Shown piece after piece: positions 3,630 to 35,402 of a DNA stretch of 35,814 nucleotides (position 1 is the stretch's first letter; each line of letters begins with the position of its first letter). The DNA comes from Candidatus Cloacimonadota bacterium (GTDB taxonomy: Bacteria; Cloacimonadota; Cloacimonadia; Cloacimonadales; TCS61), in NCBI GenBank assembly GCA_021157645.1, contig JAGGWC010000105.1, forward strand, positions 1 to 35,814, written 5' to 3'. A program made the position numbers and the translations under genes. Under the pieces are notes generated by a model. It saw only the letters and a program-made list of their open reading frames with translations, was not told the DNA's origin and did no database searches.

Positions 3630-3968
3630 ATGAATATTGAAGAAGAAAAAGAAAGATTAAATAAATTATATAACAAAACAGAAACAATACCACCAGAAAA
3701 ACCAAGAGTTCAACAACAACCATTTCCACAACAGCAATATTACCCACCGCAACCAACATATCCAGTACAACAGCCAATATATCCTCCACAATATCCTAGA
3801 GAACTAGATTATGGGAGAAGTTCAAATTTAAGAGATATTCTTAAACTTGCAGACAGAATTGAAGAAAACAAAAGAATTAATCAAAAGTGGTTTAAGATTA
3901 TAGCAGCATTAGTATTCTTAGTTATTTTATTGATATTAATAAGTACTAACATGCTTCCTTTAGGATAG
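3630..3968 (+). CDS. Pro/Gln-rich tail-anchored membrane protein (112 aa)
   Basis: In-frame ATG 3630 follows AGGTGA (3619-3624). The listed start 3561 would overlap the zinc-ribbon ORF. PQ-rich tract QQQPFPQQQYYPPQPTYPVQQPIYPPQYP. C-terminal TM IIAALVFLVILLILIS. Confidence 0.6.
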   Translation: MNIEEEKERLNKLYNKTETIPPEKPRVQQQPFPQQQYYPPQPTYPVQQPIYPPQYPRELDYGRSSNLRDILKLADRIEENKRINQKWFKIIAALVFLVILLILISTNMLPLG

Positions 3969-6290: not shown

Positions 6291-6608
6291 ATGAAAGCAA
6301 TATTATACATTGAAAATGAAGATGAATTAAAGAAAGTTGTAAAGTTTTTAGAAGAAGATAAAGTATTTGTAAAAGAACCTAAAGATAATCCTAAAACTAA
6401 ACCTAAAGATAAACTTAAAAAATCTAATGCTGGAAGGAAGAGCGTGGGTGAAATAGTTAAAGAATGGTTTGAAGTAAATAAGCCAATAGAATTTCAAATT
6501 CCAGCAGTAGCAGATATGCTAGGATTAAGTTCTCCTACTATTGCTAAATACTTCCCTAGAAAAGAATACAGGTATATTGAATCTAGAAGGACATGGGTTA
6601 GAAGATGA
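6291..6608 (+). CDS. helix-turn-helix DNA-binding protein (105 aa)
   Basis: C-terminal HTH-like IPAVADMLGLSSPTIAKYF after a Lys-rich linker. ATGA-coupled to the downstream ATPase gene. Confidence 0.55.
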   Translation: MKAILYIENEDELKKVVKFLEEDKVFVKEPKDNPKTKPKDKLKKSNAGRKSVGEIVKEWFEVNKPIEFQIPAVADMLGLSSPTIAKYFPRKEYRYIESRRTWVRR

Positions 6609-8026
6609 GTTTCATATATGATGAACCAGAAAAGATAAAGAAAATATACATAAAGGAACTGCCAGTTCTAATTAATGAAAGTAATGAGTTGGTTTGTATT
6701 CCACATTCTCCAGATAAGCCAGTTATAGGTGTAGTAGGACAAAGGTCTTCTGGTAAGTCGTTTTTAGCACATGGGATAATAGATAGAATTTATTGGTACT
6801 GGGGAGAACCACTTATTAGTATGAATGATTTAACTCATGAATCTTATATTTGGTCTACACGAAATAAGATGAAAGCTCAAGTTAAAATACTTGAGAAATA
6901 TGGTGAAAAACCTATGCCATTACCAATAGCATATATTTATCCTTATTTTAAAGGATTTAAGCCACCTGAACATGAATACATCTCTATGAGTATTCCATTT
7001 GAAGATTTTTTGAAGAACTCTCCATACTTTTTAAGATTAAAGCAATCTGAAAAATATTTAGATTTGAATTTAAGATACATTATAGATTGCAAAACTCCAG
7101 AAGAGATTCAAGATATTTTATTAGATAAAATAAAAAATAGAAGCATTGTAAATACAATAATGGCTTCTATGTATAGATATTTAAATCAAGAGATAACTGA
7201 TTTCAATTCTCCAGCACCAGCATATTTAGACATAAGCAATACTTCTGATTTTGATGCTATGTCTGATTTTGAAGGAATGCAATATGACTTAAAGGAACAT
7301 CCAGTATCAAAGCGAGAATATGGTCCTGTTAAAATGACTGAAGAAGAAAAAGAATTTATATATTCTGAATTCAAAGATAATAAAATTATAAGGGATTTTT
7401 CAAGTGTTGATTTTGATAAAACCAAATCCTATTATTGGTTATATCGCTCAAGGTATAATCCTTTATTAGCTTTAGTTAGACAGAATTTAGTTCCAGTAAT
7501 AAATACAGAACAGCTCTTATCTAAACCTTATTTCCATCCATATATGTATTATTTACTTGATACTATAATTCATAATCAATCAAGAGACTATTATTTCGAA
7601 TCTCATAAAATTCCAATATGGATACATCTTGAGGAAGTTACGAGAATAGCTTCAACACAATTAAAAGAAAAGACATCCCAAAAGCTAATTGAAATAGCTC
7701 AAACAGGAAGACCATTAAGAATGGGAATGATATATGTAACTCAAGATTATAATAAAGTGGATACAATTATGCGTTCACAAACTACTTATTTATTTACTTT
7801 CAGGTTCAAAGATAAATCTCAAGCATCTCAAATTAAATCAGATATGGGTCTTGCAGAATATGAAGAAGACGAAATTCTTCATTTAAAGAAGCATCAAGTA
7901 TTTGCTTCTACAACAGACCATTTTGTAATATACTCTCCAGATGGAACAAGATACACTACAGATAAAAGCCAGAAAGGAAGGTCTTTACCGCCCCTTTCGC
8001 AACACAAATCTCCTGGAGCTGGGTGA
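6605..8026 (+). CDS. FtsK/HerA-superfamily P-loop NTPase (473 aa)
   Basis: Walker A GQRSSGKS (nt 6737-6760), Walker B-like IWIHLEEV, then GRPLRMGMIYVTQDYNKVDTIMRSQTTYLFTFRFKD. This resembles the HerA/FtsK 'GRk.G..l...tQ.p..l...v..n....i.lrl' block. Confidence 0.65.
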   Translation: MSFIYDEPEKIKKIYIKELPVLINESNELVCIPHSPDKPVIGVVGQRSSGKSFLAHGIIDRIYWYWGEPLISMNDLTHESYIWSTRNKMKAQVKILEKYGEKPMPLPIAYIYPYFKGFKPPEHEYISMSIPFEDFLKNSPYFLRLKQSEKYLDLNLRYIIDCKTPEEIQDILLDKIKNRSIVNTIMASMYRYLNQEITDFNSPAPAYLDISNTSDFDAMSDFEGMQYDLKEHPVSKREYGPVKMTEEEKEFIYSEFKDNKIIRDFSSVDFDKTKSYYWLYRSRYNPLLALVRQNLVPVINTEQLLSKPYFHPYMYYLLDTIIHNQSRDYYFESHKIPIWIHLEEVTRIASTQLKEKTSQKLIEIAQTGRPLRMGMIYVTQDYNKVDTIMRSQTTYLFTFRFKDKSQASQIKSDMGLAEYEEDEILHLKKHQVFASTTDHFVIYSPDGTRYTTDKSQKGRSLPPLSQHKSPGAG

Positions 8027-12845: not shown

Positions 12846-12868
12846 GAGGGCTTTTAGCCCTTTTTTTA
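12846..12868 (+). terminator. hairpin plus T7 tract
   Basis: gagggc-tttta-gccct followed by ttttttt (12861-12867), 11 nt after the stop codon. Confidence 0.6.
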
Positions 12869-12880
12869 TTTATATATAAA

Positions 12881-13585
12881 ATGGTACATTTAGTACAAGA
12901 AAAAAGCACTCCTATATTCATCCTTCTCTCACTTATTTTAATATTCTTATTAATTAATTATGATGCGTCAGTATCAATCCCATATATTAGTATTGCATTA
13001 CTTAATTTAATGATTTATTTCGCATATAATAGGTTCAAATTGTCTTTTGATAAGAATGTAAATTGGCTTCATGCAACTATGTTGGGTGTGATAGTTACAG
13101 CAGCATTTATTTTAGTTATGAATGTTCTCGGTAAATTTCTTATGCCTTCATCAATTATTACCCCTTTTTCAGTTATAGAAGTTATGGCTTCTCAATTACC
13201 CAGACCATTATTATCTCAATCTTTGTTCTTTACATGGTTAAGTGTAGGAGTAATATTTCCTATACTTGAAACTGACTTCTTCTTTGGAAGAATATTAGAT
13301 GTACTTGCTACCCGATTTAAAGTAGCATTAAATTATGATTTTTCAAATCGTAAAACTTGGATGTTAATCTTTTTAGTATCTTCATTATTTGCAATATTTC
13401 ATGTAACTGCTAAAAGAGGAAATTTAGATATTGGATTATTATTTACATTTATATTTGGAATAATCAGTTGTTGGATGGTTTTAAAGTATAAGCGTACAGC
13501 TGAAGCGGTAATGTTTCATGTCATAGCAAATACTACATATCTAGTATTTGCAAATCTAGCAATAATACAAGCAGCTCTACATTAA
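12881..13585 (+). CDS. CPBP (CAAX protease/Abi) family intramembrane protease, divergent motif 1
   Basis: Polytopic membrane protein. Motif 2 is SSLFAIFH and motif 3 is MFHVIAN. Motif 1 reads FPILETDFFFGRIL instead of the canonical EExxxR/FRG. Confidence 0.6.
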   Translation: MVHLVQEKSTPIFILLSLILIFLLINYDASVSIPYISIALLNLMIYFAYNRFKLSFDKNVNWLHATMLGVIVTAAFILVMNVLGKFLMPSSIITPFSVIEVMASQLPRPLLSQSLFFTWLSVGVIFPILETDFFFGRILDVLATRFKVALNYDFSNRKTWMLIFLVSSLFAIFHVTAKRGNLDIGLLFTFIFGIISCWMVLKYKRTAEAVMFHVIANTTYLVFANLAIIQAALH

Positions 13586-16887: not shown

Positions 16888-18422
16888 AAAAAATAATTAT
16901 TTTAGGATTAATATTAGTATTAATAGCACTTCCAACAGTAAATGCTATGACTGTTATTTCTAAAGATGAAATGCAGTTAAGAATATCTCAAACGACTAGT
17001 TTTGTGGATTTTATAAAAGAGTATTTTGGTTTTATGACTACAGGTAGCCAATATCATCCATGGTTATGCGAACATACTACAGGAATAATATATTGTGATG
17101 GTACTGAGAGTTATTGTTTAGCATTCTGTTGTAATAAAGGAGATTATGATGCATGTGATGATTCTGAGAGTTGTACTAGTAATTCAGATTGTGATACAGA
17201 TGAAATTTGTTGGGGAAGCCCTAAAAAATGTGTGGAGTTAGATTGTCCTTCTGGAACTATTCCTGAAAATCATGAATGTGTATCTACATCAACATGTACA
17301 GATTCAGATGGTGGAAAAAACTATAATGAAAAAGGAGTTGTAACAGTTACTTCAAATTCAGGAGAAGTTAAGAAATATGATTATTGTAGTAGTGGAACTA
17401 CCTTAAAGGAAAGATATTGTAGTTCTGGAGAAGCTAAAACTACATCTCATACTTGTCCAGGAAGCTGTTCAGATGGAAAATGTATTTCTAGTGGTGGTTC
17501 AGGAACATGTACAGACTCAGATGGTGGTTTAGATTATTCTATGAAAGGAACATGTGTAGATGATGCAGGTTCAAATACAGATTATTGTGATGGAGATACT
17601 TTAAAGGAGATGTATTGTGATAGTCATCCATATACTGGTGATAATGTATGTTATGTTTCGTCTTATTCTTGTCCTGGTGGTTGTCAAGATGGAAGATGTA
17701 TAACTAGTAGTTCTCCAGAAGTGACTATTTTATACCCTGAGAATGGAAAGGATTTCCAAACTTCAGCTTCAAAATTAGATAAAGTAATATTGAAAGTTAA
17801 TGTTAAGGATACTGATGGAGATAAAATGACTGTTGAATTTCTAATTAAAAAAGATAATGTTGGTTATTTAGCATCTACTAAAACAGGAGTAAGTAATGGA
17901 GAAGTTACAGCTACAATTATAAATATTCCTCCAGCTAGATATGATTGGGAAGTAAATGTAGATGATGGAGAAACTACAACTACAAAATCAAGTTATTTTA
18001 CAGTATCTACAAATATGGGTGGAGAACAGAATGGTACTTCAGGAGATGAAACAGATTCAGATGGAGATGGAATACCTGATGATATAGATGACTTCCCATT
18101 TGATGGAGATAATGATGGCATTCCAGATGACCAAGATGTATATGACAACACTTGGAATTATTCTATTGGAGATGAAAATACTGAAATAGGAAATTCTTCA
18201 GCCTCTGGAACTTTTTGGGTTGTAAAATCTTCAGGAGGTACGAAAGAATGTATAGAAGTAAGTAAGGCGGAATATCCTACAGGATATGTGAGTAAAGAAG
18301 CATGTTTATCTGCAATTAAAGAAGATACAGAATATGTATCTCCAATAGATATTAAGGATATACCTATATGGGTTTGGGGAGTATTAGGAGTAATTGTCCT
18401 TTTAATAATAATTAGAAGATAA
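16884..18422 (+). CDS. secreted Cys-rich protein: 2 x CTDSDGG-type domain, Ig-like domain, TSP3-like Ca-binding Asp repeats, C-terminal anchor (512 aa)
   Basis: ATGA-coupled ATG 16884 gives the signal peptide MKKIIILGLILVLIALPTVNA (listed start 16797 overlaps the upstream gene). A duplicated ~71-aa domain starts at nt ~17293 and ~17505. DSDGDGIPDDIDDFPFDGDNDGIPDDQD at ~18046-18140. C-terminus is IPIWVWGVLGVIVLLIIIRR. Confidence 0.7.
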   Translation: MKKIIILGLILVLIALPTVNAMTVISKDEMQLRISQTTSFVDFIKEYFGFMTTGSQYHPWLCEHTTGIIYCDGTESYCLAFCCNKGDYDACDDSESCTSNSDCDTDEICWGSPKKCVELDCPSGTIPENHECVSTSTCTDSDGGKNYNEKGVVTVTSNSGEVKKYDYCSSGTTLKERYCSSGEAKTTSHTCPGSCSDGKCISSGGSGTCTDSDGGLDYSMKGTCVDDAGSNTDYCDGDTLKEMYCDSHPYTGDNVCYVSSYSCPGGCQDGRCITSSSPEVTILYPENGKDFQTSASKLDKVILKVNVKDTDGDKMTVEFLIKKDNVGYLASTKTGVSNGEVTATIINIPPARYDWEVNVDDGETTTTKSSYFTVSTNMGGEQNGTSGDETDSDGDGIPDDIDDFPFDGDNDGIPDDQDVYDNTWNYSIGDENTEIGNSSASGTFWVVKSSGGTKECIEVSKAEYPTGYVSKEACLSAIKEDTEYVSPIDIKDIPIWVWGVLGVIVLLIIIRR

Positions 18423-20641
18423 TGAGAAGAAAGACAGAAATAAAATGGTGGCATGTAGTCTTAGCAATAGTTATACTTCTTTTTATGGGAAACAGATATG
18501 GATTATTTACTTTTGGATATACTCCATCAAGTGCTTCTTTTGTTCAATATGCAGGAGAGTTACATATACAATATGCTAGTTGGTGGGATGATAATAGATT
18601 TAATTCAGATACTACAGTCGAAATCGGAGATTATAAATTTGAAACTATAAAATATGACCAATTTTTAAGAGGATATTGTGATTCAACAGATGCTCCAGTA
18701 CAATATTGTCATGTAGTTAATAATGGTGGGAATCATCTGTATACTAATGGAATGCAATGTACTTTATTAAGTAATTATACAGATGAACATGGTTGTGAAG
18801 TTAAAGAATATCACTGTAAGTATTATTCCTGGTCTAATAATTGTGCTAGATATGGTGCAGGGTCACATACTACTTCATGTAATTGTTTAGGGCAAGTACC
18901 AAATTTTCATCACATGCCTACTAGAGATGCAGAATCAGACTATATTAAAGGAGGATATACAGAGTCTTATACAGATTCAGGAGGACATATAAATTATGGC
19001 TGTTCATATGTAATTAAAGTTTATAAAAATAATGAATTAATAGATACTATAGGTCATGCTACAGGAAATGCAGCAAATATGACTGGAAGTTCACAAAGAG
19101 ATTATGAGTATATTCATGCGGAATTTGGAGAACAGAAATGGTATAATTATCACGAATGTAATTCTATTCTAAATAGATTTACAGTAAAAGTTCCAAATGA
19201 TGCATTTAATATCTCTATTTCAACTCCAGAAGAGTATTACATACAAGGAGATGATGCTGTAAGCACAATTAAGATAATAAATAATTGGAAACCTGTAACT
19301 TCAAGGGTAGCTATAAAAGTATGCCAACCTACCTTTGGTTCAAAACATTGTGAGATTTATTCTCAAAAAAAAGAGTTGGTTTTAGGAGAGAACAATATTA
19401 ATTATTCAGTACCAACAAGACATACAGCAGAAAAATTAGAAATAACTCCTACTGTCGAAGTATATCTTAATTTAAATACTTTTAATTTAAATGGATTAAA
19501 TGTTGAAGCATGTAAGGTTAAGAATGATAATTTAAATGCTTATTGTGATAAAAGCAATATAGGAAGTGGATTAATAAAGGTTGACAAAGCAAAAGCAGCA
19601 GGGTATGTATTATATACTATTGGTTCAGTTACTACAAATACTACAATTGTAAAAGTATATCCTAAAGAATATGAAGAATTGTTAGAAGCAAATCAAACAA
19701 TTCTTACTTTAAATCAATCCTTAGAAGAACAAGTTGCTATAATTAAACAATTAAATGCTTCAATACAGTACAAAGCAGAAATAATTCAGAATTTAACAGA
19801 TAATTTAGCAGTTCAAGCAGAATATATTCAAGAATTAACAAATAGAGCAGATGAACAGGCTCAATATATTGACCAATTAACAGATAATATAGATGAGCAA
19901 AGAGTGTTAATAGAACAATTGACACAAGAAAGAGACCAACAACAAGCAATCATAGACCAATTAAATCTTAATATTAATGAAAAAGTAGAGTTGATACGGA
20001 GTCTTAATGCTACTATTGAAGAACAAGATGAAATGATTGCTCATTTAAGTACAACCTTACAAGAAAAAATAGAATTAATAAATCAATTAACAGCTACAAA
20101 TGAAGAACAAGCAAGATTAATAAGATTAATGAATCTAAGCTTTGCAAATGAATCTTATATTATAGACCAATTAAACAATAAAATAGAAGATGACGCAGCA
20201 GTAATTGGTAATCTTACAGATTCTCTTTCACATCAGGCAGAAATTATTAAAAATATGAATAGAACATTACAAGAAGATGCAATATTAATTCAACAACTAA
20301 CTGACAGTAATGCTAGACAAGCAGAAATAATAAAGAAACTTAATCTTACTGTAGCTGAACAAGCAGAAATAATAAATAATATGAATCTCAATCTTGAAGA
20401 ACAGGCTCAAATAATTAAAGACCTTAGATTAAAAGTAGACGAAGAACAGGAATTAGTAAATAACTTAAATTTAACTGTACAGCAACAACAGCAATTGATA
20501 GAATTATTAAAGAATACTGAGCCAGACCCAATACCACAAGAAGATAATGGCTTCAAGATTCCGAAAGATATTGGAGGAATTCCAACATGGGTAATAATAA
20601 TTGGAGGTGTAATATTCTTATTAATAATAAGAAGACTGTAA
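18422..20641 (+). CDS. spike/fibre-like protein: signal anchor, Cys-rich head, ~280-aa coiled-coil stalk, C-terminal anchor (739 aa)
   Basis: TAATG overlap with the upstream gene. N-terminal WWHVVLAIVILLFMG. 14-residue repeats cover the C-terminal third. C-terminus is IPTWVIIIGGVIFLLIIRRL. Confidence 0.7.
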   Translation: MRRKTEIKWWHVVLAIVILLFMGNRYGLFTFGYTPSSASFVQYAGELHIQYASWWDDNRFNSDTTVEIGDYKFETIKYDQFLRGYCDSTDAPVQYCHVVNNGGNHLYTNGMQCTLLSNYTDEHGCEVKEYHCKYYSWSNNCARYGAGSHTTSCNCLGQVPNFHHMPTRDAESDYIKGGYTESYTDSGGHINYGCSYVIKVYKNNELIDTIGHATGNAANMTGSSQRDYEYIHAEFGEQKWYNYHECNSILNRFTVKVPNDAFNISISTPEEYYIQGDDAVSTIKIINNWKPVTSRVAIKVCQPTFGSKHCEIYSQKKELVLGENNINYSVPTRHTAEKLEITPTVEVYLNLNTFNLNGLNVEACKVKNDNLNAYCDKSNIGSGLIKVDKAKAAGYVLYTIGSVTTNTTIVKVYPKEYEELLEANQTILTLNQSLEEQVAIIKQLNASIQYKAEIIQNLTDNLAVQAEYIQELTNRADEQAQYIDQLTDNIDEQRVLIEQLTQERDQQQAIIDQLNLNINEKVELIRSLNATIEEQDEMIAHLSTTLQEKIELINQLTATNEEQARLIRLMNLSFANESYIIDQLNNKIEDDAAVIGNLTDSLSHQAEIIKNMNRTLQEDAILIQQLTDSNARQAEIIKKLNLTVAEQAEIINNMNLNLEEQAQIIKDLRLKVDEEQELVNNLNLTVQQQQQLIELLKNTEPDPIPQEDNGFKIPKDIGGIPTWVIIIGGVIFLLIIRRL
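19688..20527 (+). repeat. 20 x 42-nt (14-aa) in-register coding repeat, consensus QAEIIxQL(N/T)xxxxE
   Basis: Hand alignment from ANQTILTLNQSLEE to QQQLIELLKNTEPD needs no indel. Confidence 0.8.
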
Positions 20642-20642
20642 A

Positions 20643-20786
20643 ATGGCAATGGAAATATTCGCAAAGATAGGATTAATTTCAAGTAAAATAATAGAATTGT
20701 TATCAGTGAATACAGGACAATCTAAAGACACAATTGTAGGCGTACTGGTGATATTAGTAATATTGTTTTATTGGTTAAAGAGGTAA
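20643..20786 (+). CDS. 47-aa tail-anchored micro-protein, not in ORF track
   Basis: MAMEIFAKIGLISSKIIELLSVNTGQSKDTIVGVLVILVILFYWLKR. Starts 2 nt after the upstream stop. Confidence 0.4.
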   Translation: MAMEIFAKIGLISSKIIELLSVNTGQSKDTIVGVLVILVILFYWLKR

Positions 20787-20788
20787 AA

Positions 20789-20920
20789 ATGGTATTAAGA
20801 AGAAGACCCAGAAGTGGGTATGGTTTAAAGGATGGAAGTAGAAGAGGTCTAAAAAATGGAGGAAGAGGTAGAAATAAGACATCTAAATGCAGACATCCTA
20901 GTAAAAAAAGAAGATGGTAA
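20789..20920 (+). CDS. 43-aa highly basic Arg/Gly-rich micro-protein, not in ORF track
   Basis: AGAGGTAAAAATGG cassette. MVLRRRPRSGYGLKDGSRRGLKNGGRGRNKTSKCRHPSKKRRW (17 K/R of 43). Confidence 0.5.
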   Translation: MVLRRRPRSGYGLKDGSRRGLKNGGRGRNKTSKCRHPSKKRRW

Positions 20921-21516
20921 AATATGTAAAAAGAAAATATATTTCAAAAACAAATGTAAGGTCTCATTATAGAAGAATTAATGGAAGAGAAATAAGAGTC
21001 AGACCTTATGAAAGAAGAGTTAAGAGAGCGGAATATGGATATTTACCTAGAAGTATGACAAATAAAGAGTATAAACGAATATTCTCACCTAATGCCGATG
21101 CAGATGAAGATGGTATTAGAAACTGGGATGATTGTAGACCTTTTGATAATTCTAAACAAGATTCACAATTTCTAGTTTCAATTCCATTTTTATATTCTTT
21201 AGATGTAGAAGCTAAAGATGAGTTAGAAGCTGAAAGAAGAGCAATTGAAATTTTAGAGAGTGAAGTTGATTCTTTTAGTTCTAATGGAAGTATAGAAGAT
21301 ATTACTTTTTCAGGATTACCTAATGATTTTGAAAAAGTAGAGGAAGGAAAATGGTCTGTAATCCTTAAAGGAAAGTATATAGATTATGTTACTGCTGGGA
21401 CGGCTGAAGAAGCTGAAGAAATAGCTGAAGAAGAAATATATAAAGATATAGGTGTAAACGGAACTATTACTGAAATAGATTATAGTGATATTGAAGTTCA
21501 AGAAATTAATGAATAA
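20914..21516 (+). CDS. bipartite protein: basic N-terminal ~55 aa, acidic C-terminal domain (200 aa)
   Basis: MVKYVKRKYISKTNVRSHYRRINGREIRVRPYERRVKR..., then DADEDGIRNWDDCRPFD, then a Glu-rich domain. Confidence 0.6.
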   Translation: MVKYVKRKYISKTNVRSHYRRINGREIRVRPYERRVKRAEYGYLPRSMTNKEYKRIFSPNADADEDGIRNWDDCRPFDNSKQDSQFLVSIPFLYSLDVEAKDELEAERRAIEILESEVDSFSSNGSIEDITFSGLPNDFEKVEEGKWSVILKGKYIDYVTAGTAEEAEEIAEEEIYKDIGVNGTITEIDYSDIEVQEINE

Positions 21517-21519
21517 AAA

Positions 21520-21666
21520 ATGGTAATCAAAAAGACAAGTAAAGGGTATATACTGTTCAGCAAAAGCAAACCAAGAAGAAAATTAGGAGGACCATATAAA
21601 AGAAAATCAGATGCCTTAAAACGAGAAAGGCAGGTACAATTTTTCAAACATCATAAGAAGAGGTAA
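21520..21666 (+). CDS. 48-aa basic micro-protein, not in ORF track
   Basis: MVIKKTSKGYILFSKSKPRRKLGGPYKRKSDALKRERQVQFFKHHKKR. Confidence 0.45.
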   Translation: MVIKKTSKGYILFSKSKPRRKLGGPYKRKSDALKRERQVQFFKHHKKR

Positions 21667-21668
21667 AA

Positions 21669-21839
21669 ATGGTAAGAAAAGCAAAATCAGGACAATATAG
21701 AACCATAGTTCCTAAAAAAGGAGTATATATACATGTTAAGAAAACAAAAAAAGGAAAAATGGTTGCAACTAAATTAAGAAGAACTAAAGCTCATGCAAGA
21801 AGAACTCGAAAACCAAGAGTTCAAAAAATAAGGAAATAA
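21669..21839 (+). CDS. 56-aa basic micro-protein, not in ORF track
   Basis: AGAGGTAAAAATGG cassette. MVRKAKSGQYRTIVPKKGVYIHVKKTKKGKMVATKLRRTKAHARRTRKPRVQKIRK. Confidence 0.45.
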   Translation: MVRKAKSGQYRTIVPKKGVYIHVKKTKKGKMVATKLRRTKAHARRTRKPRVQKIRK

Positions 21840-21861
21840 TGCTCTTTTGAGGTGATAAAAA

Positions 21862-21933
21862 ATGGTAAAAAGAAGAAGAAAAACCAAAACTACTAAAAAG
21901 AGAAAGACAACAAGAAGAAAACGAAAGAGATAA
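21862..21933 (+). CDS. 23-aa protamine-like peptide, not in ORF track
   Basis: GAGGTGA SD at 21849-21855. MVKRRRKTKTTKKRKTTRRKRKR (16 K/R of 23, no acidic residue). Confidence 0.4.
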   Translation: MVKRRRKTKTTKKRKTTRRKRKR

Positions 21934-32800: not shown

Positions 32801-35257
32801 CCAAATTCACCAACTGATACGATTACTGGACAAGCATTATCTGTAAATTTAAATGTAACAGTAAGTGATAATGACTCAGATACAATGAATGTATCATTTT
32901 ATAACAATGATACAAAAGCTCAAATAGGAACTACTCAAACAAGTATAGCATCAGGAAGTACAGCTCAAGTAACTTGGTCAGGTCTTTCAGCAGGAACTAC
33001 TTATTCATGGTATGTAAATGTAACTGATGGAACAGATACTACTAAAAGTTCAGTTTGGACGTTTACTACTTCATATACTCCTATATTAACAGCATATGAC
33101 ACATATCCAGATACAGCATACACAAATACAGATTTGAAATTTAATATAACATGTACAGACCAAGATTCAGGAGACACAATTACAGGATACTTACAAGTAT
33201 ATAATGGAACAACTCCTTATGGTTCTGTTCATAGTAGTACAGTAACTAATGGCACTGAAACTACTTTATTCACTTTAGGTTCAGGAAACACTACTAAAGG
33301 TGAAACTTGGAAAGGAGAATACTGGTGTGGAGATGGAGTTTCTAATTCAAGTAAACAAAATGATAGTGTTACTATTTTAAATACAGCACCAACAACACCA
33401 ACAAGCAGTACATTAAATCAAACTATATATGTAGGTCAAAACTTAACAGCTACATGTTCTGGCTCTACTGACTTAGATTTTGATTCAATAACATATTATT
33501 ATAGATTTTACAATGAAAATGATGCAACTGAACTTCAAGCATATTCAACAGATAATACATATGTATTACAATCAACAGATGCCCACGATGTAATAAATGT
33601 AACTTGTAAGGCATATGACGGAACTGCTTATTCTTCAACTTTATCAAATACTACAACAGTAAGCAACACAGCCCCAACAGCTCCAGATGTAGGATTAAAT
33701 AGTAGTATAACAGTAGGTCAAACATTAACAATTACTTGTGAAAATAGCACAGATATAGATTCAGATTCTTTAACTTATTATTCAGAATTATATAATATAA
33801 ATGATTCAACAACATTAAAAGCATACTCAACAAGTATGACATATACTATTCAAACATCAGATGCCCATGATACATTAAGAGCAAGATGTAAGGCATCAGA
33901 TTCATATACTAATTCAACAGAAGGAGAAAGCAATATTACAGTAAGCAACACAGCACCAAACATAAATTCATATGCTTCAGTACCTGAAGCTCCAGAATAT
34001 ACAAATACAACTTATCTTACGATAAATATCACAGACATAGATAATGACAGTATGTCTTGGTGTAATTTTACAGTAACAGCACCAAATGGAACTATTATAT
34101 TAAATAATATTAATGGAACACATTCAGGAGTTATATGGAATTCAACTACTTTCAATTTAACAAGTACAGGAACAAAATATGGAACTTGGGAATATAATGT
34201 ATCTTGTTATGATGCATATAACACCGCATCCCAATCTTGGACATATACTTCAACTATAGGAACATACAACTACACACCTTACGAAACCTGGACATTCTCT
34301 CAAACTGCTGGAAATACAGAATTAAAGACATTTATTTTTGATGCAACTGGAGAGAATAGTAGGAATAATATAGTAAATGGAAGTGTGGAAGGAGACTTAG
34401 CTAATTCATCTTATTATCTTACTGTTTCATATAATACTACTTCATTTTATATTCCTGTAAATGGAACAGTATCAATACAAGCAAACATAACTTCAGACCA
34501 TGATAACACACCTGCTGGAACTTATACTGGAAACCTAACATTTAATAGAACAGATGATGGAACTATTTTGAAAATACCTGTAAGTTTTTCAGTAGCTGGA
34601 ACTTCCGCAGATATAAATGTAGACCCAACATCTAAAACAACGACTATGTATGCTTCAGATACTAGTACTTGGACATTAAATGTATCAAATGTAGGAGATA
34701 GAACTGCTACAAATTGTAGTTGTACTTTTGCAGGAACTATACAGCCATTCTCATCATGTGTAGAAGAGCCCTTTAATGTTTCATATGGAAATTATACTCT
34801 AGTATCTGTAAAATATACTAATCCCTCAGAAGGAGATTACTCAGGAACATTAACTGTTTCCTGTACTTCAACTGCAAGCGGGGGAACAGATACAGCTTCA
34901 GTTAATCCTATAAGCTTATCAGTATTAGCAGCACCCTCTGGAGGCGGGGGTGGAGGAGGTTCATATGTTCCTCCTGAGAATAATATAACTATTCCAGAAC
35001 CAGCAGTATGCGGTGATGGAATATGTGAAGATGAAAAAGGAGAGAATTCATGGAATTGTCCAGATGACTGTGCTGGTTTAAGCTTAAAAGGATTAGTATT
35101 AGGAAATTCCAAATCAAGAATATTCCAAATATTATTAATAGTCTTTTTAGGAAGTATTATGTACTTATCCTATTCTGAAAAGAAAAGAAAACTAAAAGTT
35201 TTCGGAGGTAAAAATGGCAAAACGTGGAAAATCCCGAAGTTCTTCAAGAAAGGTTAA
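29867..35257 (+). CDS. giant secreted, C-terminally anchored adhesin/spike-like protein (1796 aa): DNRLRE-like domain, right-handed beta-helix (NosD/PbH1-like), multiple Ig-like modules, Gly6 linker, CGDGICE...CPDDC knot
   Basis: Signal peptide LTTLVLLSLLLIIPALYMQA. ASLLMFNISSIPNNANIIDAGLYLYQ...NWNEETVTWNTKP (~30715-31215). Repetitive N-x-x-x-N-I/ITL beta-helix rungs (~31240-31950). Repeated TAPT..-linked Ig-like units (~32150-34600). GGGGGG at 34938-34955. TM IFQILLIVFLGSIMYL. Confidence 0.8.
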   Translation: MKSSKSKLTTLVLLSLLLIIPALYMQATTAKGTAQTIKNVTIKRGPSWEETCHPVTTTKEHCFTNYCVDWEINETTEEPYCVDMRDTYCRNSTYTTTECTRTLYSGTRFIEKHKGHKDYVPMDEVVNVTYVNDSIVLSWWDKRVVLEPYIEINNNKYKLKNMPASSSNPNVPTKNKLKFLTKIKDNKYSYYYNHTMDAKLGKSSSKKEVFNTFGYNISESNANCTFKNNALICDEIEINFAQAVNEQNLTLYTEKEGKKLKGISIKAEKEGTSIFYIDPTIQLQDNVTENLNDAKILEDYPDYNAATSKLQVGYANITASLLMFNISSIPNNANIIDAGLYLYQNVIGGTQKLVGVKVCNTSRNWNEETVTWNTKPIQGVCSDNIEQNPANTAGWRGPWDVTSLINTTYNNVSLELYPDISDTDWDNDIIQYNSKEYATASLRPYLNITYSNSTNISDCAVLDIPGHTYYLTTNITDSSTSYCMNISANNVTLDCQGHTIDGDDAADYGIYIKRSSSINSNIVVKNCTITDWDTYGSYIATANNVTFEDITYTSNPDMALYVASDYNKFTNIISNYNGRGITLNYADSNTFTNIIANSNPYGGIYLWYSNSNIFANMTVNSNANSDNAGIYLYCSHANVITYSKIENNSNSGITLCYSDGNVANKIYNNLFNNTNNIVFVGTEYSNNWNTTYQSGTNIYDSSIGYIAGNWYSGFSDNSTLCPDTTGDGFCDNAYDVKNNTAGCDSNNCDYKPISSFYGNPTNQAPSFTVTPDDASTVGSPTNVGQNVTFTATATDADGDNYTLYICKTNAFSSGSCTGGEWCHSTSTTSGSQASCKYLTQDSDSTQESWYAFAYDGTSASSSSSTYSPMNINHRPYASGVVINDSTPYTDSIIQCNYTFNDADGDSESSVAYKWYKNNVLISGETSSTLNLSVAGNGNKGDIINCSVQVTDEHSFSDDVYVASSGVTIQNYAPNTVTSPNSPTDTITGQALSVNLNVTVSDNDSDTMNVSFYNNDTKAQIGTTQTSIASGSTAQVTWSGLSAGTTYSWYVNVTDGTDTTKSSVWTFTTSYTPILTAYDTYPDTAYTNTDLKFNITCTDQDSGDTITGYLQVYNGTTPYGSVHSSTVTNGTETTLFTLGSGNTTKGETWKGEYWCGDGVSNSSKQNDSVTILNTAPTTPTSSTLNQTIYVGQNLTATCSGSTDLDFDSITYYYRFYNENDATELQAYSTDNTYVLQSTDAHDVINVTCKAYDGTAYSSTLSNTTTVSNTAPTAPDVGLNSSITVGQTLTITCENSTDIDSDSLTYYSELYNINDSTTLKAYSTSMTYTIQTSDAHDTLRARCKASDSYTNSTEGESNITVSNTAPNINSYASVPEAPEYTNTTYLTINITDIDNDSMSWCNFTVTAPNGTIILNNINGTHSGVIWNSTTFNLTSTGTKYGTWEYNVSCYDAYNTASQSWTYTSTIGTYNYTPYETWTFSQTAGNTELKTFIFDATGENSRNNIVNGSVEGDLANSSYYLTVSYNTTSFYIPVNGTVSIQANITSDHDNTPAGTYTGNLTFNRTDDGTILKIPVSFSVAGTSADINVDPTSKTTTMYASDTSTWTLNVSNVGDRTATNCSCTFAGTIQPFSSCVEEPFNVSYGNYTLVSVKYTNPSEGDYSGTLTVSCTSTASGGTDTASVNPISLSVLAAPSGGGGGGGSYVPPENNITIPEPAVCGDGICEDEKGENSWNCPDDCAGLSLKGLVLGNSKSRIFQILLIVFLGSIMYLSYSEKKRKLKVFGGKNGKTWKIPKFFKKG

Positions 35258-35402
35258 AAAGAAAAGAATACCTAAAAAATACAGAGTATTAAAAAAAGAA
35301 CAGCCAACGTGGGCAATACAAGATAAAAAAACAGGAAGGTTAGCTGGAAGAGTATCTGAAGGAGAATACTATATGGGATATAGAGTAAAAAGGAAACGTT
35401 AG
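35214..35402 (+). CDS. 62-aa basic protein
   Basis: GGAGGTAAAAATGG cassette. MAKRGKSRSSSRKVKKKRIPKKYRVLKK... Overlaps the end of the giant gene by 44 nt. Confidence 0.5.
   Translation: MAKRGKSRSSSRKVKKKRIPKKYRVLKKEQPTWAIQDKKTGRLAGRVSEGEYYMGYRVKRKR

Follow-up and report, generated by a model that had tools for sequence, protein, structure and literature searches.

Are the five consecutive, mostly very small and strongly basic open reading frames (ORFs) that open with Met-Val at positions 20789-21933 of contig JAGGWC010000105.1 real genes, and what might their products do? We have analysed the whole of this 35,814-nucleotide stretch (hereafter the window; assembly GCA_021157645.1, filed under Candidatus Cloacimonadota), which is an entire contig (C135) of a 1.5-Mb metagenome-assembled genome (MAG), with a GC content of ca. 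30% and every long ORF on the plus strand. The five ORFs, here called b43, b200, b48, b56 and b23 (Table 1), lie between the gene of a 739-amino-acid (aa) coiled-coil protein with a membrane anchor at its C-terminus (18422-20641) and the genes of two small membrane proteins and a 2268-aa protein (from 21967), so that the flanks within the window hold a transmembrane (TM)-anchored coiled-coil protein and giant Big_1 or beta-helix proteins. In public assemblies four of the five genes are missing or only partly called. We conclude that at least four of the ORFs are real genes, and that the region is a run of real, mutually unrelated small genes, apparently translationally coupled and situated in the late/structural block of a virus that is uncultivated and probably archaeal and tailed. 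The proteins are probably nucleic-acid-binding polycations, and an association with the viral genome in the capsid, or on its way into it, is in our opinion their single most likely role, although we hold this tentatively.

The coordinates, lengths and lysine/arginine (K/R) counts of the original prediction (17 K/R in the 43 aa of b43; 16 in the 23 aa of b23, which lacks acidic residues) were all reproduced, and ATGGTA opens all five ORFs, in keeping with the Met-Val start claimed for them. At pH 7 the four small proteins have net charges of +15.6, +15.7, +22.7 and +15.5, with a pI of 11.5-12, and b200 combines a head (residues 1-56) of +14.6 with a tail of -28. The region consists of 46% A and 21% G, and it had been conceded that such A/G-rich sequence can generate K/R-rich frames by chance. 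This was ruled out as the cause of the open frames: 97.6% of positions 20789-21933 is occupied by ATG-initiated ORFs of 20 aa or more, against a mean of 20% (standard deviation 11, maximum 60%) in 1000 dinucleotide-preserving shuffles, none of which (0/1000) reached the observed value. The coverage of two sub-regions with small ORFs only was likewise beyond the shuffles. The composition of the region therefore does not account for its open frames. Neither Pfam nor PHROGs yielded a family at E<=1 for the five ORFs or for the small genes beside them, and hhalign detected no relationship between the b48 family and b43, b56 or b200; the idea that the five are paralogues was therefore rejected.

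The shared start cassette RGAGGTAAAAATGG is present, as had been noted, at 3967, 20779, 21659 and 35204 (four copies found, 0.01 expected), the last one just before a sixth basic protein at 35214, and AAAATGGTA occurs six times in the window (1.2 expected), four of them in the five-ORF region. A purine-rich Shine-Dalgarno (SD) site at a fixed distance had been proposed for all the starts; an SD-like pentamer at -16 to -4 was found for those at 20789, 21669 and 21862, but not for those at 20914 and 21520. Of the latter two, the first overlaps the stop of b43 and the second lies 3 nt past the stop of b200, and both thus look like cases of termination-reinitiation coupling. At two junctions the 16-nt exact repeat (Table 1) joins the Lys-Arg-stop of the upstream protein, the SD and the following Met-Val, so that the "basic tail" signal is in part tied to the ribosome-binding site. 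No RNA family of Rfam matched the region, and a promoter and terminator scan of it gave nothing above chance.

Table 1. Small basic genes and gene-boundary repeats of the window.
Feature	Positions	Strand	Description
b43	20789..20920	+	43 aa, 17 K/R, Gly/Arg-rich; SD AGAGGT within the tail of the TM gene before it
b200	20914..21516	+	200 aa, basic head and acidic tail; start overlaps the b43 stop (ATGGTAA)
b48	21520..21666	+	48 aa; member of a mini-protein family, predicted beta-beta-beta-alpha
b56	21669..21839	+	56 aa, basic; core G(E/Q)YRT.VPKKGVYIHVKK
b23	21862..21933	+	23 aa, 16 K/R, zero acidic residues; SD GAGGTGA
47-aa hydrophobic protein	20643..20786	+	directly upstream of the run; KR tail holds the b43 SD; gene call in public assemblies
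Gene-boundary repeat AAGAGGTAAAAATGGT	20778..20793; copy 2 at 21658-21673	+	16 nt exact; upstream K-R-stop, SD and ATGGT start
Gene-boundary repeat ATAAAAAATGGTAA	21513..21526; copy 2 at 21855-21868	+	14 nt exact; starts of b48 and b23
Sixth small basic protein	35214..35402	+	62 aa, 24 K/R, pI 11.3; start context GGAGGTAAAAATGG as in the cluster

Conservation of start, frame and length in relatives had been named as the decisive test for such short frames. It was passed by b43, b48 and b56; for b200, on the other hand, only near-identical copies were found, and for b23 no diverged relative. Codon comparisons indicate that b43, b48 and b56 are under purifying selection. In the b43 family an invariant core, KDGS..G.K.GG.GRN.T..CRHP, followed by basic residues, recurs in basic ORFs of 39-46 aa from seven lineages, with 22 invariant columns in five aligned sequences. 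One homologue is AJP62016.1, a 40-aa hypothetical protein encoded 2.7 kb upstream of terL in ANMV-1 (KP703175), a published virus from methane-seep sediment for which an archaeal host, possibly one of the anaerobic methanotrophic archaea (ANME), was proposed by its authors from a TATA-binding protein and ANME-like genes (PMC4372165). Over a core of 24 codons, b43 and the ANMV-1 gene have 57% DNA identity, and of their codon differences 16 are synonymous and 4 are not. The homologue in an IMG/VR contig (L106) differs from the b43 core by 11 synonymous and 2 non-synonymous codons and is flanked by a phrog_399 "structural protein" on one side and a virion-structural-like gene on the other. A 39-aa homologue (P0159) occurs in a second metagenomic lineage (L013-L018), and two further copies were found on two contigs of one (G105) of 392 Methanosarcinia-class genomes. 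The product is probably a disordered Gly/Arg-rich peptide with an invariant Cys-Arg-His-Pro end. The family is new, and all members found so far belong to archaeal elements or to likely ones (ANMV-1, the Methanosarcinia-class MAG and uncultivated contigs).

Two side observations concern these relatives. The lineage of the 39-aa b43 homologue carries one more array in this style (L013:5179-6540), with, in succession, a protein of 219 aa (53 K/R), a basic-tailed membrane protein of 67 aa, a basic ORF of 46 aa starting with MV (SD GAGGAGG) and an ORF of 43 aa (17 K/R). ANMV-1 carries unannotated tandem repeats upstream of its TATA-binding-protein gene (L191:10200-10600; KP703175 about 12860-13260), the translated frames of which repeat a unit of ca. 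21 residues three to four times; these may be iterons or a repeat element of some other kind.

The b48 family is far larger. A phmmer search of b48 against 1.84 billion representatives retrieved 199 proteins or representative clusters at E<=1e-3 (6 at E<=1e-10), with up to 70% identity over ca. 43 residues, mostly stand-alone ORFs of 44-60 codons. The family consensus is MI+KT.KGYVL.SK..+LGGPYKT..EA.KRERQVQFFK, and b48 aligns over its full length with the nearly invariant G9, S14, L22-G-G-P-Y26, A32, R35, Q38, F42 and K43. In a strain variant of the window (L007) the gene has six substitutions, all of them synonymous (6/6), which would alter five residues in each of the other frames. An AlphaFold2 model from a 70-sequence alignment (pLDDT 91.2) places strands at residues 2-6, 9-13 and 21-26, followed by a helix at residues 29-46, so b48 is predicted to be a folded mini-domain of three strands plus a helix. 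We found at least 278 loci of the family in IMG/VR, with GC contents from 29 to 74%, and at least 533 in species-representative genomes, the latter including Terriglobales (Acidobacteriota), Rokubacteria/Methylomirabilota, many lineages of the candidate phyla radiation (CPR), Gammaproteobacteria and Methanoperedens. Of the large genes lying closest to the viral loci, those of the terminase large subunit (several PHROGs, the top two with 6 members each), portal and head-tail adaptor families are the most frequent, in a tally without a matched control.

This family is not covered by Pfam, PHROG or NCBIfam (70 relatives searched) or by PDB sequence models. The nearest approaches in the libraries were one of 20 relatives to DUF2188 at E 0.0035 and two relatives to SPOR; the gathering thresholds of DUF2188 and YegP-like (DUF1508) were not reached, the b48 of the window itself had no match, and neither the five ORFs nor 20 b48 relatives matched DUF5872 or DUF6321 in Pfam at E<=1. 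A Foldseek search of the model against PDB gave no match, VIA-align gave only generic ones (Z<=5.3; YaiA, YegP/UPF0339-type, HVO_2922), and the BFVD matches were uncharacterised phage proteins only. We consider the size of this uncurated family, and the fold predicted for it with confidence, to be new.

Homologues of b56 with 64-72% identity, from two other lineages, are the protein P0157 of three contigs (L019-L021) and a 63-aa ORF of another (L022). Over a 32-codon core the synonymous and non-synonymous codon differences were 13/7 and 16/7 against two relatives, and the protein has a conserved beta-rich core. The homologue in L022 precedes the gene of a Zot-like/head-morphogenesis P-loop ATPase, and the one in L019 and L020 is directly followed by a gene of the b48 family, within another run of small basic genes. 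The two samples that yielded L019 and L020 also yielded two of the strains without b56. The b56 family was absent from IMG/VR, cultured phages and the Methanosarcinia-class genomes searched, and a scan of JGI metagenomes retrieved the already known contig only. As to the second array itself (L019:860-1960 and L020:1170-1973), its order is a 48-aa protein with a SHYR motif, a 73-aa protein (30 K/R), the 98-aa b56 homologue, a 48-aa member of the b48 family and an 85-aa protein with an MV start.

No homologue of b200 beyond near-identical copies was found in 5.8 billion proteins, and none in phages. Its head motif, VRSHYRR..G..I.V..Y.RR, resembles the 48-aa ORF of the second array (V+SHYR+..+.I+I+.Y.R+; pair E 2e-4), and its single-sequence AlphaFold2 model (pLDDT 38) was unusable. 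We see it as a basic, hairpin-like head joined to a very acidic tail, which, speculatively, might mask polycations or mimic nucleic acid. The length of b200, together with its clean behaviour as a cassette (see below), argues for a gene. The b23 peptide is identical in variants that are 98% identical, with one synonymous change. The coding status of b23, for which this identity, the SD GAGGTGA and the 14-nt junction ATAAAAAATGGTAA in common with b48 speak, is plausible but unproven.

Exact or near-exact copies of the region are found in several public assemblies (L002-L006), and four contigs from other samples (L007-L010) are ca. 98% identical in the flanks and have two segments missing. The first, absent from all four, is exactly 606 nt (20914-21519), i.e., the entire b200 gene, and is bounded by the ATGGTAA of b200 and that of b48, so that b43 leads into b48 there with the same 7-nt overlap. 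The second (about 21652-21833), absent from L008-L010, removes the entire b56 gene and leaves a 47-aa b48 with a slightly altered basic tail and its own stop. Both indels keep all the neighbouring frames intact. Thus, b200 and b56 are whole-gene cassettes that are dispensable in nature, and this gain and loss of whole genes at start-codon junctions is new. The b200 indel ends at the ATGGTAA of the 14-nt repeat and the b56 indel is not on a repeat; recombination may use such short identical junctions as joints. In tblastx comparisons of the window with L013, L019, L020, L022 and L106 a small basic gene was the sole similarity in each pair, and the small genes are thus exchanged singly among otherwise unrelated elements.

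What is the element that carries them? Within its bin the contig is the longest, the lowest in GC and the most deviant in tetranucleotide usage. The bin (73% complete) contains a bacterial ribosomal protein L9, and archaeal S3Ae, histone, archaeal small-subunit rRNA and McrA were looked for in it and not found. The contig encodes an Orc1/Cdc6 protein, its AAA, lid and winged-helix domains all scoring above threshold, which matches 381 plasmid records (the twelve matches listed and the ten commonest genera are all archaeal, mostly haloarchaea) and no phage record. Since a bacterial bin stands against archaeal-type genes on the contig, the bin cannot name the host, and we treat the binning as probably wrong. 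The description of the contig as an archaeal element is thus drawn from its own genes and not from its bin; the host is probably archaeal, as suggested by Orc1/Cdc6 and by b43, common to ANMV-1 and the Methanosarcinia-class MAG. A 473-aa protein (6605-8026) matches the terminase large subunit (TerL) family phrog_2666 at E 1e-10 over residues 340-446, its C-terminal part only, with a weak Pox_A32 match. No capsid or portal protein was recognised in the contig. This TerL-like protein suggests that the virus is probably tailed; none like it was found in 62 genomes of the bin's family, and searches of IMG/VR with the 200-aa, 116-aa and 739-aa proteins gave no relative of the whole element.

The element is larger than the window. 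In an ENA scaffold of 58,574 bp (scaffold_71; L002/L188) it runs at least 27 kb beyond the window end, with a block of minus-strand genes that have no family assignment, plus a small ORF resembling a C2H2 zinc finger, and the complete element would reach at least about 62 kb. At the window end, the gene of the 62-aa protein (35214-35402) overlaps by 44 nt the 3' end of that of a 1796-aa beta-helix protein; the protein has exact matches on 8 public contigs, and its gene is followed in some strains (L189, L190) by an extra 54-aa gene.

With these elements in place the function can be addressed. Polycations with charges of +15 to +23 in 23-56 residues, co-oriented and coupled with structural-type genes, are probably late and nucleic-acid-binding. 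The claim that the cluster belongs to a structural module is plausible, given that in other viruses the b43 and b48 homologues adjoin genes for structural proteins, terminase or portal, and this recurrence beside structural and packaging genes is what makes association with the genome the most likely role. The small proteins would be made late, together with the virion proteins, would bind nucleic acid electrostatically and would coat the viral genome or neutralise it while it is being packaged, or else accompany it; a number of them are perhaps redundant accessories. Condensation of the genome in the manner of protamines is possible, by analogy. A more ambitious version, in which archaeal tailed viruses have an exchangeable toolkit of unrelated polycationic mini-proteins, packaged with the genome and neutralising it independently of histones or polyamines, with the K-R-stop/SD/ATGGTAA joints swapping micro-genes and b200 acting as a chaperone of the polycations before packaging, appears to us doubtful.

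Several observations weigh against a role with the packaged genome. Both b200 and b56 are absent from ca. 98%-identical strains, and therefore cannot be essential packaging components. The b48 protein is predicted to be a folded mini-domain (pLDDT 91) and not a disordered polycation, which weakens the condensation idea. The tally of viral b48 neighbours has no matched control, and the cellular b48 genes neighbour metabolic ones, namely 2-oxoacid dehydrogenase E1beta/E2, aminotransferases and short-chain dehydrogenases/reductases; a family found in such ordinary cellular operons is not virus-specific. The b48 domain is moreover fused in longer proteins to enzyme domains of "polyvalent protein" type, namely DUF5824, DUF5661, ART-PolyVal, cytidylyltransferase-like and peptidase S49 (a literature search on DUF5661 and DUF5824 found no paper), and this, with the cellular spread, means that a general-purpose binding module or a counter-defence function fits as well as a role in the capsid. 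Besides, the type of virus is weakly established (a C-terminal-only TerL-like match, no capsid protein), and b23 is without independent support. As a separate observation on the cellular loci, in Terriglobales and Rokubacteria MAGs (L108:3967-6537 and similar loci L109, L111-L116) the b48-family gene seemingly lies between a transketolase-like E1beta and a 2-oxoacid dehydrogenase E2 gene, with 5 neighbours each carrying 2-oxoacid_dh, Biotin_lipoyl and E3_binding in a cellular, non-viral context.

The foremost alternative is that the small genes are accessory cassettes of the "moron" type, whose products do not belong to the virion and target host nucleic acids or proteins (as DNA mimics, regulators or inhibitors) in host takeover or counter-defence. 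We regard it as unlikely, but as one to be reckoned with. It would explain why presence varies among near-identical strains and why single genes are exchanged between unrelated elements, and it agrees with the cellular distribution of the b48 family and with its fusions to domains that characterise the polyvalent proteins of phages (ART-PolyVal, nucleotidyltransferase-like); many small phage proteins do act on host processes (reviewed in PMC11323111). However, the genes sit within a co-oriented block of structural type, with promoter or terminator signals not above chance, structural and packaging genes repeatedly adjoin the b43 and b48 homologues, and neither PHROGs nor Pfam returned a match (no search of the PADLOC defence library was made). 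More improbable still is that these are RNA- or ribosome-binding mini-proteins that modulate translation or RNA stability, b23 being similar in composition to eL41. The size and composition of the proteins are those of small ribosomal proteins, the presence of b48-family genes in chromosomes of many phyla, including the reduced genomes of CPR bacteria, suggests a binding role of housekeeping type, and the fold searches did return double-stranded RNA-binding-domain-like and ribosomal chains at low Z. Nevertheless, no ribosomal protein was matched in Pfam, NCBIfam or PDB sequences, the fold matches are generic (Z<=5.3), and the cellular neighbours of b48 are metabolic genes and not ribosomal operons; b23 had no Pfam match to eL41, a 23-residue low-complexity query being near the scoring limit of HMMER. 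That some of the ORFs, above all b23, are untranslated chance frames in an A/G-rich spacer is very improbable. The base composition does favour codons for K/R, no diverged homologue of b23 was found, and the single synonymous change of b23 is uninformative at 98% identity. Yet b23 has a good SD at the usual distance and the start junction of b48, and for b43, b48 and b56 the shuffle test, together with conservation across lineages and an excess of synonymous change, excludes chance.

If genome association is the role, i.e., if these proteins are packaged, they would show how some prokaryotic viruses neutralise the charge of their DNA; if they are not, they become candidate host-directed effectors. 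In either case, small genes below the usual cut-offs are systematically missed by annotation, and b43, b48 and b56 define conserved families without a description in curated libraries, b48 being a very widespread folded domain of 45-50 residues in viruses, bacteria and archaea. The strains with and without b200 and b56 constitute a natural experiment.

Some known systems offer themselves for comparison. The predicted antiparallel sheet and C-terminal helix of b48 recall the YegP/UPF0339 (DUF1508) and DUF2188-type proteins (PDB 3bid, 2k7i, 6q2z HVO_2922, 2k49; Z 4.1-5.0), although these scores are generic, no model reached threshold and the functions of the YegP and DUF2188 families are themselves unknown. 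The core peptides of adenoviruses (pVII, mu/pX) and P64 of ascoviruses, the latter a protamine-like DNA condenser of a eukaryotic virus (PMC6163548), are likewise small, very rich in K/R and encoded among late or structural genes. In composition the match is with b23 (70% K/R, 16/23) and roughly with b43 (17/43). The differences are that there is no sequence relationship, that b48 is predicted to be folded, that two members of the array are dispensable and that the proteins described here are known from their genes alone; no (M/L/I)xGG processing sites were seen by eye in the five sequences. A third parallel concerns the way in which the genes are arranged. In lambdoid phages, conserved sequences at gene boundaries promote mosaicism. 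Here one of the two indels is on a repeat, the repeats measure 7-16 nt and causality is inferred, but the likeness lies in the short identical start sequences, which coincide with the breakpoint of a whole-gene indel (ATGGTAA, at 20914 and 21520).

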